Below, one piece after another: positions 29,852 to 31,451 of a DNA stretch of 64,000 nt. Under the pieces are notes generated by a model. That model was given only the letters and a program-made list of their open reading frames with translations, did no database searches and was not told the DNA's origin. The stretch is from a virus (taxonomy: Duplodnaviria; Caudoviricetes). Positions within the stretch are counted from its first letter, which is position 1. Each line of letters starts with the position of its first letter. The stretch covers positions 101,510 through 165,509 of the IMG/VR virus record IMGVR_UViG_3300032239_001501; one strand, 5' to 3'. Both the position numbers and the translations under genes were made by a program.

Positions 29852-29922
29852 CACGCATATCCCGATTTGAACAGGAACGAAATCTTTTGGAGAGATTCAT
29901 GCTACCGTTACATCATACACGC
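29852..29922 (-). tRNA. tRNA-Trp(CCA)
   Basis: Cloverleaf; anticodon arm AAUCU-CUCCAAA-AGAUU; no encoded CCA end. Confidence 0.85.
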
Positions 29923-29935
29923 ATTTATTTTTTTG

Positions 29936-30007
29936 CGTCCCCTCAAGGATTTGAACCTTGGACCCTCTCGTTAACAGCGAGACACTCTACCACTGAGCTA
30001 AGGAGAC
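29936..30007 (-). tRNA. tRNA-Asn(GUU)
   Basis: Anticodon arm UCUCG-CUGUUAA-CGAGA; T loop UUCAAAU. Confidence 0.9.
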
Positions 30008-30019
30008 GTTCTGTTCTCA

Positions 30020-30139
30020 TTATTTTTTTATAATCCCCGCCTTAATAAGAAACTTACGAGCAGATTTTTTATTTTTGCAAACCCTTTTAGTTAATATTCT
30101 AATTGCTTTAACTTGTTCGTCAATTTCTTTTTTTCTCAT
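30020..30139 (-). CDS. Small basic hypothetical protein
   Basis: MRKKEIDEQVKAIR...; the longer ORF call overlaps tRNA-Cys. Confidence 0.4.
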   Translation of the reverse strand: MRKKEIDEQVKAIRILTKRVCKNKKSARKFLIKAGIIKK

Positions 30140-30140
30140 G

Positions 30141-30211
30141 AGGTCAGTACAGGATTCGAACCTGTGTGAAATCTTTTGCAGAGATTCATATAACCACTCT
30201 AACAACTGACC
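30141..30211 (-). tRNA. tRNA-Cys(GCA)
   Basis: Anticodon arm AAUCU-CUGCAAA-AGAUU; U73 discriminator. Confidence 0.9.
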
Positions 30212-30216
30212 ATACC

Positions 30217-30435
30217 TTAATGGGTTCCATTTGTTAATGAAATCCCATGTCTTATTCCCGTGATAAAATCTTCAATTTCATTCTCAGTCATATCTTTATA
30301 TTTATGTCCAACAGTATATCCGATCTCATTTCCACAATCACTTAAATCACCTTCATATATTGTTACATTTGCTTTCTTGGTCAAAGATAATCCAATCCAA
30401 GATAAATCCTCACTATTAAATGTTCTTTCCATCAT
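30217..30435 (-). CDS. Hypothetical protein
   Basis: 72-aa ORF inside the tRNA array. Confidence 0.5.
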   Translation of the reverse strand: MMERTFNSEDLSWIGLSLTKKANVTIYEGDLSDCGNEIGYTVGHKYKDMTENEIEDFITGIRHGISLTNGTH

Positions 30436-30443
30436 AATTTGTT

Positions 30444-30677
30444 TTATTCAACCATATCAAAATTAAGATTATTGTCCGACATTAACTCACGAAGTTCCTC
30501 TCTAATTTCTTGATATGCGTCGTACTTATCCTGAGGTAAACCATCAGGAGCATATTTGGTCTTAGACCTTAAAGACTGGTCCAATTCCCACAATACAGAC
30601 CAAAATTTGGTTCCACTTGTTGCCAATAAAAATTCCTGATTATCATCAGGCAAATTAAATTCCAAAATTGCTTTCAT
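30444..30677 (-). CDS. Small phage hypothetical protein
   Basis: MKAILEFNLPDD...LWELDQSLRSKTKY; 77 aa. Confidence 0.65.
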   Translation of the reverse strand: MKAILEFNLPDDNQEFLLATSGTKFWSVLWELDQSLRSKTKYAPDGLPQDKYDAYQEIREELRELMSDNNLNFDMVE

Positions 30678-30692
30678 AATACATACTTTTTG

Positions 30693-30862
30693 TAGTCAGG
30701 ACAGGAATCGAACCTGTATGCCATTTGTGGTTTTCTCTTCAATTTACTGTTGCAACAGTACCACAAGCGTTTTGCCACTCCTGTATGATGTCCGCTTACG
30801 TCTATCATACAATATCAACCTTGCGAGTTAATGTGCGCGTCTACCAATTCCGCCACCTGACT
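30693..30862 (-). ncRNA. tRNA-Leu-like shell with a multi-hairpin insert replacing the anticodon/variable arms
   Basis: AGUCAGG/CCUGACU+A acceptor, GCGGAAUUGGUAGACGC D arm, ACAGG-UUCGAUU-CCUGU T arm; 170 nt total. Confidence 0.8.
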
Positions 30863-30937
30863 ATTTACCCCACTTCACCAGCTTAACGGACTGGCTGCCA
30901 TATGGGAGTGGGGGTTTCCCGTTATTTCGGGACTCCG

Positions 30938-31016
30938 TGGCCAACATAGGATTCGAACCTACACAAAGCAACCATTTTACTGGATTTGGGTACCATCCCT
31001 CATTACGCACTTGGCC
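30938..31016 (-). pseudogene. Degenerate tRNA-like element
   Basis: GGCCAA/UUGGCC acceptor and intact T arm GUAGG-UUCGAAU-CCUAU; D and anticodon arms irregular. Confidence 0.55.
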
Positions 31017-31124
31017 AAATATAAAGTTAAAATCTTTAACTTTAATAACTTCCGACTTTGTCATGTTTTTACTTCCGACTTTGTCATTATTCTTTGAGGT
31101 TGCAAAATGAAACCTTAAAGAAAG

Positions 31125-31198
31125 TATCGCGTACGGGGTTCGAACCCGTAATCTTCATCGTGAAAGGATGACGACTTAACCAATTTGTCCAACGCGAC
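31125..31198 (-). tRNA. tRNA-Glu(UUC)
   Basis: Anticodon arm UCAUC-CUUUCAC-GAUGA; full cloverleaf. Confidence 0.9.
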
Positions 31199-31243
31199 AT
31201 TTGTTTCACAAAGATACAAACAATATTTCAAACATCCAAAAAT

Positions 31244-31280
31244 AAAAAACCCCGAACTTCATTTCTGTCGTTCAGGGCTT
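31244..31280 (-). terminator. Intrinsic terminator (putative attenuator) upstream of the tRNA array
   Basis: GCCCUGAAC...GUUCGGGGU stem plus U tract. Confidence 0.75.
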
Positions 31281-31304
31281 GTATATGAATATACATCAGG
31301 AATT

Positions 31305-31397
31305 TTACTTCTTACCATCTGAACTACAAGGCATAATCTCATACCAACAATTCTCTTGTTGTTTATTAAAGATTATATTATGCATTGTAGTGTTCAT
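31305..31397 (-). CDS. Putative attenuator leader peptide MNTTMHNIIFNKQQENCWYEIMPCSSDGKK
   Basis: 30-aa ORF with TATTTAT motif upstream and a terminator ~25 nt downstream; contains an antiterminator segment. Confidence 0.6.
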   Translation of the reverse strand: MNTTMHNIIFNKQQENCWYEIMPCSSDGKK

Positions 31398-31451
31398 GTT
31401 ATTATAAATATATGATTTTTGTTTAAAATGTCAATTATATAATTTAAATAG

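Follow-up and report, generated by a model that had tools for sequence, protein, structure and literature searches.

The element analysed here lies on the minus strand of a 64,000-nucleotide (nt) stretch of viral DNA (Caudoviricetes; positions 101,510 to 165,509 of IMG/VR record IMGVR_UViG_3300032239_001501), referred to as the window, and precedes a small block of phage tRNA genes. We propose that this element, leader 2, is a ribosome-mediated transcription attenuator that gates the tRNA block and senses the supply of those same tRNAs, a reading that we consider likely. Transcription would start from a promoter P1 and a ribosome would presumably translate a 30-codon leader open reading frame (ORF). 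With fast decoding, the ribosome would arrive at codons 22-31 and cover region 2 of the leader RNA, so that regions 3 and 4 form the terminator and the transcript stops at the T-run. If the tRNA for any codon from about 2 to 19 is scarce, the ribosome would stall upstream of region 2; UGUAGUUCAG would pair with CUGAACGACA before region 4 is made and the polymerase would continue into tRNA-Glu, Cys, Asn and Trp. Since there is approximately one leader codon per gated tRNA, shortage of any single tRNA would turn on the whole block. The design amounts to an extreme form of multivalent attenuation, in which read-through is expected to respond to tRNA supply. The trigger may be the loss of host tRNAs during infection, caused by host shut-off or anticodon nucleases.

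The comparison with related phages carries this proposal. The flanking 243-aa protein, used as a query, led to four related viral contigs, while a metagenome scan with the terminator sequence yielded 41 loci and later scans another four, giving a total of 38 distinct versions of the element. In every version it stands where the two halves of a large tRNA array meet, with Pro-Asn-Asp-Gly-Gly-Thr-(Ala)...Leu-Arg-Leu upstream and Glu-Val-Phe-Lys-Cys-Trp-Tyr-Met-Gln-Arg(ACG)-Met-His-Ile-Ser(GCU) downstream. In relatives with a full array (contigs L039, L057, L051 and L067) the leader reads MNTTMRHIVFSKQQEICWYEIMPCSSDV. Its codons 5-19 (ATG CGT CAT ATA GTC TTT AGT AAA CAA CAA GAA ATT TGT TGG TAT, encoding M R H I V F S K Q Q E I C W Y) include all 14 downstream tRNA species once, with Gln represented twice. 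The match extends to the codon level: CGT, and not AGA, corresponds to Arg-ACG, AGT, and not TCN, to Ser-GCU, and ATG and ATA to the two CAU tRNAs (ATA was scored against any CAU tRNA or omitted, as it is not settled which of the two is Ile2). Assuming independent codons and the phage's own codon usage, such a catalogue has a chance probability of 2e-11, and the best real 15-codon window among 45,252 windows of long phage ORFs covers 11 of the 14 species. For the tRNA inventories behind these counts, Infernal and ARAGORN made 109 and 107 calls, respectively, at ten key loci, the tRNA absences were upheld, and the two additional Infernal calls lie upstream of the element, leaving the downstream sets unaffected.

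The leader codons change along with the tRNA genes. In a set of 37 leader/array combinations, core codons whose tRNA gene is present are retained in 238 of 252 cases vs 68 of 108 for those whose gene is absent (odds ratio 10). Because such pooled retention could reflect fast-evolving lineages, the comparison was also made within ten representative lineages, where 14 of the 19 substitutions affect codons whose tRNA has disappeared (6.7 expected, P ~1e-5) and 13 of 18 replacement codons are readable by a tRNA remaining in the block (5.3 expected, P ~7e-5). Phylogenetically independent pairs, taken from a tree built without the core codons, are concordant in 8.6 cases and opposite in 0.8 (median p 0.011). 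Synonymous changes read by the same tRNA are freely tolerated (ACT/ACA, GTC/GTT, CAA/CAG, TAT/TAC, GAA/GAG). E.g., the tRNAs for Arg, Val, Ser and Lys are missing from L038, whose leader carries R6H, V9I, S11C and K12Q; in the L034/L060 group tRNA-Glu is gone and so are both Glu codons; and the ATA codon is replaced where the block has no CAU tRNA left. For the 317-kb contig L064, which was kept out of sample and lacks the Val, Lys and Ile(GAU) tRNAs, changes at V9, K12 and I16 were predicted before its leader was read. The leader has V9E, K12T and I16T, with R6Q as the one unpredicted change. The expectation of an earlier, sequence-only reading of this DNA that leader codons should follow the downstream tRNA set is thus borne out across lineages, within lineages and out of sample.

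In the window, codons 15-19 read GAG AAT TGT TGG TAT (31355-31341), the E-N-C-W-Y run that the sequence-only reading had taken as the control region, and the intact tRNAs downstream are exactly Glu, Asn, Cys and Trp, as it had reported and as ARAGORN and Infernal agree. These codons do match the local tRNAs; the sensor itself appears to be wider, comprising roughly codons 2-19. On its own, the match of E, N, C and W is merely suggestive, since ~3.5e-4 of all 30-codon ORFs should contain these four in adjacent positions in some order, and translating the 165.5-kb record in six frames yields six runs of this kind; the family data are far stronger. Judged from the aligned leaders, E-N-C-W-Y is the local form of a general codon/tRNA rule: codon 16 is I in most relatives, T in some and N only in the lineage of the window. 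Each of the five core changes of this lineage (R6H, H7N, V9I, S11N, I16N) affects a codon whose tRNA has been lost, and three introduce Asn codons; no other group has tRNA-Asn downstream.

The same reduced array invites the reading that the system is real in the relatives but has become a decaying relic in the phage of the window, its array down to four tRNAs that have their own promoters and are no longer regulated. Indeed, the block comprises only Glu, Cys, Asn and Trp plus several tRNA-like remnants, 11 of the 15 ancestral sensor codons have no tRNA in the block, the sister contig L002 has lost even tRNA-Glu, and a paralogous cassette of the relatives, leader 1, is absent from the 165.5-kb record. 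Yet the ORF, P1, regions 1-4 and the T-run are intact and near-identical to those of full-array phages, and the record is only ~55% complete. The substitution pattern of the lineage, with five of five core changes on lost-tRNA codons and three of them serving the newly placed tRNA-Asn, points to continued selection. Decay without regulation is therefore quite unlikely in our estimation, and attenuation remains the favored reading for this phage as well.

The leader ORF (31397-31305), one of the features already named in the sequence-only reading, is open in all 38 distinct versions and ranges from 26 to 32 codons. Over a block of ~210 nt the DNA identity amounts to 82-97% where the identity of the flanking protein spans 50-98%, and region 3 is identical in the four relatives reached via that protein, i.e., independently of the element sequence. 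The ORF tolerates an in-frame 3-nt deletion (L030) and, in the L034 group, a 1-nt deletion that alters the frame only past codon 23, whereas the nucleotides GTAGTTCAG stay invariant in all relatives despite group-specific reading frames across this region. Constraint thus acts on the codons over the 5' two thirds of the ORF and on the RNA over its 3' third.

Region 2 resembles the 5' half of a tRNA (acceptor and D-arm), and the same 18-mer occurs in true phage tRNA-Asn and tRNA-Thr genes. A search of viral contigs with the pattern CCTTGTAGTTCAGNTGGT returned mainly real tRNA-Asn/Thr genes or coding DNA and no added relatives, and blastn in distant mode against GenBank phages gave tRNA-to-tRNA matches only and no relatives. 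The idea that region 2 and the terminator are a dead tRNA was rejected: ARAGORN and Infernal are silent at 31335-31244 and only the 5' 18-mer is tRNA-like. One might still suppose a chance ORF and hairpin in an AT-rich spacer of the tRNA array, perhaps left by a dead tRNA, given the tRNA-like region 2 and the six E/N/C/W runs mentioned above. With 38 conserved versions, including phages whose flanking protein is just 50% identical, and with comparative statistics that contradict it, we attach next to no credence to this supposition.

In folding models, the RNAs of leader 2 and leader 1 are both predicted to adopt the 1:2, 2:3 and 3:4 pairings of an attenuator. Leader 2 RNA has a minimum free energy of -44.6 kcal/mol (z = -4.7), with helix energies of -15.0 (1:2), -10.1 (2:3) and -16.2 kcal/mol (3:4). 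The intrinsic terminator announced in the sequence-only reading is present: CCCUGAAC (31277-31270) pairs with GUUCGGGG (31257-31250) around a 12-nt loop, followed by the T-run T6AT5 (31249-31238), and its G+C-rich stem of 8-10 bp is located between the leader and the tRNAs. A simple terminator scan overlooked it because of a loop limit of 8 nt. The proposed antiterminator, UGUAGUUCAG (31328-31319) with CUGAACGACA (31275-31266), was upheld as well, with 9 of 10 positions paired and an overlap with the 5' arm of the terminator. The leader also contains a small hairpin. The ribosome-free fold contains the terminator together with a 1:2 helix between codons 3-7 (region 1) and codons 21-25 (region 2), whereas in the transcript that ends before region 4 the 2:3 antiterminator is the structure of minimum free energy. 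When a ribosome is masked onto the latter transcript, 2:3 pairing is predicted only as long as the A site has not moved beyond codon 20, and it no longer forms from codon 22 onward. The codon stretch that permits 2:3 pairing coincides with the stretch in which codons track tRNAs, and the stop codon is placed 6-20 nt past region 2 in all relatives. The suggested trp/his-type geometry thereby holds, both conformers folding as proposed. Across an alignment of 28 leader-2 sequences, 88-92% of the alignment cells of the 1:2 domain are paired vs 35-50% with slid partners, and 100% of those of the terminator. An inner hairpin within the ORF varies by A-U to G-U changes only; since it pairs the Q13 and Q14 codons with those of C17 and W18, the Q, C and W codons never change.

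Leader 1 offers an independent view of the same logic. In the relatives it stands ahead of tRNA-Pro and the first array half (Pro-Asn-Asp-Gly-Gly-Thr...Leu-Arg-Leu), has 31-34 codons (e.g., MRHLNLNTGNTPTTPNGDTGTLCLDSDTDVG) and encodes a peptide unrelated to that of leader 2. Its promoter block is the one of leader 2, (C/T)ATATTTATAAT..., with TATTTAT at the head, and its switch consists of TTCAG, CCCTGAA and TTCAGGG plus a T-run, followed by tRNA-Pro. The core codons L, N, T, G, P, D and R(AGA) are the species of the first array half. On L067, sub-array 1 accounts for 17 of the 18 classified core codons of leader 1, and sub-array 2 for 15 of the 18 in leader 2 (Fisher 4e-6); the same assignment on L038 gives 1e-5. 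The leader 1 fold of L067 reaches z = -5.45. Covariation between antiterminator and terminator, a further expectation of the sequence-only reading, is seen here in part: leader 2 is invariant, and one pair of the leader 1 antiterminator covaries (A:U, G:C and G:U in three, four and one versions, respectively, and A:C in none). On L038 and L053, tRNA-Pro starts 0-14 nt past the leader-1 T-run with no promoter box in between, such that read-through is the only visible route of expression. In the window, no leader-like ORF precedes tRNA-Ser (56168) or tRNA-Thr (32948), which have TAnnTTTG boxes only.

Both cassettes also bear on the reading that leader 2 is a self-contained small gene, equipped with its own promoter and terminator and unconnected with tRNA supply, whose product is either a functional micropeptide or a structured small RNA in which the ORF is incidental. 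The element does possess its own promoter and terminator, with another promoter after them, and its RNA is strongly structured (z = -4.7). The tRNA cluster of phage T4 likewise contains small stable RNAs of unknown role. Such a gene would leave unexplained the catalogue of one codon per tRNA (2e-11), the replacement of codons following the loss of tRNA genes, the existence of a second cassette with an unrelated peptide and the same logic, and a C-terminal frame change with conserved nucleotides. Moreover, the peptide matches no protein family, PHROG families included, the element has no Rfam family at E up to 1, and at that cut-off no T-box or other cis-regulatory Rfam model matched within 28500-34000. 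We hold this to be very improbable and continue with an attenuator that senses tRNAs.

Two promoters frame leader 2. P1 is arranged as TTGACA-N16-TATATT overlapping TATTTAT (31434-31404), the latter motif (31410-31404, minus strand) being present as the sequence-only reading had it; the box is only 7 nt 5' of the ATG, implying a near-leaderless mRNA. The block ATATATTTATAAT at P1 is kept in about half of the relatives and the remainder have a TAnnTTTG box. Over the whole record, TATTTAT is enriched 17.6-fold within 45 nt upstream of same-strand ORFs of at least 100 aa (42 of 122 copies), compared with 7.5-fold for its reverse complement and 1.5-fold for TAnnTTTG, and it is probably a phage-specific promoter element. 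P2 is the host-type box TATCTTTG (31216-31209) before tRNA-Glu that had been flagged as a caveat, and it is real and conserved. Among the relatives, TA and TTTG are fixed and the middle two bases vary (TC, AT, AA, GA, TA, CT), and the TTG 20 nt upstream is retained even where an insertion parts it from the T-run. In L028 an insertion separates P2 from the terminator, and the P2 module stays with the first tRNA (tRNA-Glu). Compared with the published Bacteroidota sigma-A consensus at positions -12 to -5 (PMC9723704), P2 behaves as a true sigma-A -7 element. These patterns suggest a phage-specific transcription class for P1 and early, host-driven transcription for P2; P2 may then provide basal expression by the host polymerase, and P1 with the attenuator demand-driven expression. 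A P2-like TTTGAA...TAnnTTTG was also considered as a repeated phage promoter and rejected, with one good copy in the record and TAnnTTTG barely enriched. In two sister contigs the P2 box is kept although tRNA-Glu is deleted (L002:7740-7790) or truncated, its anticodon arm gone (L003:8650-8700).

The position of P2 raises the question of whether leader translation is tuned to the tRNA set while the output is something other than terminator read-through, namely a change in how stable the precursor RNA is or how it is processed, passing polymerases that occlude or activate P2, or a trans role of the terminated ~150-nt RNA or of the peptide as for rnTrpL/peTrpL. P2 follows directly after the terminator with its -33 TTG in the T-run region, the terminator loop and the 3' arm of the small hairpin are invariant, which is unusual in a plain terminator, and attenuator RNAs and their peptides are capable of trans action (PMC7298713, PMC7968998). 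A promoter-free interval between terminator and gated genes, as used to recognize attenuators, is found only at leader 1 of L038 and L053; in the window it is occupied by the conserved P2. Against a different output stand the alternative pairing, the ribosome-position logic and the stop placement, which are those of classical attenuation in two paralogous cassettes, and the L038 and L053 arrangement of tRNA-Pro abutting the leader-1 terminator. We regard such an output as unlikely and favor control by read-through.

Several observations nevertheless weigh against the attenuator. RNAalifold of the 28 leader-2 sequences contains no compensatory pairs, regions 2-4 being invariant, and the search pattern itself imposed the invariance of the terminator on the 41 metagenome loci. 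In equilibrium folds with a masked ribosome the terminator beats 2:3 every time, which means that the switch must be kinetic. The terminator of the trp leader is also the stabler helix, with the same outcome at equilibrium. In ribosome-free RNA, 1:2 pairing leaves GUUCAG partly unpaired. Since P2 lies past the terminator, the tRNA block can be transcribed without read-through and the attenuator would be additive only. The codon/tRNA correspondence has exceptions: L054 has tRNA-Glu without the Glu codon, L023 and L052 keep the Lys codon without its tRNA, and three codons have changed in the L047 lineage though their tRNAs are present; the ancestral leader state in these comparisons is the consensus. 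In the window, the leader codons M, H, I, F, K, Q and Y have no cognate tRNA in the block, where four intact tRNAs are left. Finally, a single codon per tRNA is expected to give low sensitivity to a mild shortage.

Coordinates of the attenuator, its promoters, the gated tRNA genes and further features; positions refer to the window unless a contig is named.
Feature	Position	Strand	Description
P1 promoter	31434-31401	-	TTGACA 31434-31429, then TATATTTA/TATTTAT 31412-31404; 11/12 vs sigma-70 consensus
Leader 2 ORF	31397-31305	-	ATG 31397, TAA 31307-31305, 30 codons + stop: MNTTMHNIIFNKQQENCWYEIMPCSSDGKK
Sensor codons 2-20	31394-31338	-	Predicted by ribosome-mask modelling; a stall there would leave region 2 free
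Region 1	31391-31379	-	ACUACAAUGCAUA; partner of region 2 in ribosome-free RNA
Inner hairpin CAACAA/UUGUUG	31361-31345	-	Q13 Q14 codons with C17 W18 codons; RNAalifold consensus, 28 sequences
Region 2	31335-31319	-	AUUAUGCCUUGUAGUUCAG; 5' part is the partner of region 1, UGUAGUUCAG (31328-31319) that of region 3
Region 3	31277-31266	-	CCCUGAACGACA; common to antiterminator (31275-31266) and terminator 5' arm (31277-31270)
Region 4 + T-run	31257-31238	-	GUUCGGGG (31257-31250) + T-run 31249-31238; terminator 3' arm and tail
P2 promoter	31239-31209	-	TTG 31239-31237, 20-nt spacer, TATCTTTG 31216-31209; 10 nt before tRNA-Glu
tRNA-Glu(UUC)	31198-31124	-	ARAGORN; Infernal 61.6 bits; heads the gated block
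tRNA-Cys(GCA)	30211-30140	-	ARAGORN + Infernal
tRNA-Asn(GUU)	30007-29935	-	ARAGORN + Infernal; position downstream of the leader unique to the window's lineage
tRNA-Trp(CCA)	29922-29851	-	ARAGORN + Infernal; closes the block in the window's phage
Leader 1	L067:1480-1640	+	Also in L064, L066, L023, L038, L042, L053, L005
bS21 gene	2293-2445	+	PF01165, 36 bits

The IMG/VR record has a length of 165.5 kb, a G+C content of 30% and an estimated completeness of ~55%, from which a genome of ~300 kb follows. Huge phages of freshwater Bacteroidetes that encode bS21 have genomes of 293-331 kb, ~30% G+C and 5-25 tRNAs (PMC9723584). Based on its bS21 gene, the phage of the window groups with them and appears to be of this type, the likeness consisting of genome size (~300 kb), G+C content (~30%) and the bS21 gene; the terms 'leader' and 'attenuat' do not occur in the text of PMC9723584.

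The surroundings of the block contain further tRNA-related features. A tRNA-Arg(UCU)-like gene (31662-31559, minus strand) carries a ~26-nt insert that results in a 13-bp anticodon stem and receives no ARAGORN call in the window; L003 has a near-identical copy (7755-7854) that scores 45 bits as a tRNA, and at the corresponding site of L002 the tRNA-Arg(tct) is intact. Between this gene and P1 lies a structured spacer without ORFs (31452-31559, minus strand). Two tRNA-like remnants on the minus strand (30693-30862 and 30935-31016), one of ~170 nt with a big insert, retain well-formed acceptor and T arms but no normal anticodon arm and are called by neither ARAGORN nor Infernal. The sequence-only reading had allowed that a degenerate element may carry GUA; the one at 31016-30935 was rejected as tRNA-Tyr(GUA), with zero tool calls and the anticodon arm absent. 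In relatives a tRNA-Tyr gene follows Trp, and the same stretch of the window contains a methyltransferase gene. Two small ORFs (77 and 72 aa) between the tRNAs (30217-30677, minus strand) lie in DNA that aligns with relatives at 78-93% identity and match no PHROG family. Elsewhere in the window, a 1020-aa ORF (19282-22344, plus strand) has no NCBIfam match at E 1e-5.

More tentatively, these elements could be parts of a multiplexed surveillance of the tRNA pool in giant Bacteroidota phages, although we would not yet count on it. Each block would have a leader with one codon per tRNA, and the collapse of any species, e.g., by an anticodon nuclease or host shut-off, would stall the ribosome and activate the block that holds the replacement. 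The host-type promoter would provide early basal expression and the TATTTAT promoter with the attenuator would act later, while leaders would be re-edited by selection upon gain or loss of tRNAs. In certain phages, sub-runs of the leader (C-W-Y, V-F-(S)-K, M-R-H-I) parallel the tRNA gene order (L057/L067), which may be coincidence and was not counted as evidence.

The reason why phages carry tRNAs has been a question for 50 years. Recent work points to the replacement of host tRNAs destroyed in infection (PMC10264068, PMC11555353). In the same vein, phage tRNAs are thought to replace depleted or cleaved host tRNAs (PMC10264068, PMC11555353, PMC12409363); the titles and abstracts of these three concern tRNA repertoire and nuclease escape. 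Depletion or cleavage of host tRNAs is the setting in which an on-demand tRNA switch would pay. Full-text literature searches revealed neither leader-controlled tRNA genes in phages or bacteria nor a regulatory sensor upstream of phage tRNA genes. Leader-peptide attenuation as such has been inferred in Flavobacterium (PMC9723704).

Among known systems, the attenuators of amino-acid operons (ilvGMEDA for Ile/Leu/Val, thr for Thr/Ile, trpL, hisL, pheL, leuL) share with the phage leader a short leader ORF, control codons, the 1:2/2:3/3:4 pairings, a terminator and a choice based on ribosome position, and the multivalent ilv and thr leaders come closest. The helix energies of the trp leader are of the same order as those of the phage leader. 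The amino-acid operon leaders gate biosynthetic enzymes and contain runs of one to three amino acids, whereas the phage leader gates tRNA genes and has about one codon each for up to 14 tRNAs, is encoded by a phage and would respond to the tRNA itself instead of the amino acid. Unlike these attenuators, leader 2 also has a promoter after its terminator. In the pheST operon, leader-peptide attenuation (pheM leader) controls the PheRS genes via Phe codons only; the target is likewise the decoding machinery, whereas the phage case combines a set of tRNA genes with a codon catalogue. T-box elements similarly let the status of a specific tRNA decide between terminator and antiterminator ahead of genes of the translation apparatus, but do so without translation, by direct contact of the tRNA with a specifier codon and the T-box sequence, while the phage element depends on its ORF. 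The phage leader departs from classical attenuators in what it gates (tRNA genes), in being phage-encoded and in listing single codons, one per sensed tRNA, and judging from the sequence comparisons the phage probably makes the gated tRNAs on demand. If true, this would be the first regulatory evidence of a phage that monitors the tRNA pool species by species and makes replacements, and it would extend leader-peptide attenuation to RNA genes, to viruses and to a design of one codon per sensed species, which to our knowledge no amino-acid operon uses. The leaders would then give a read-out, from sequence only, of the tRNAs that a phage treats as one functional unit, and would offer a compact natural sensor of decoding capacity.

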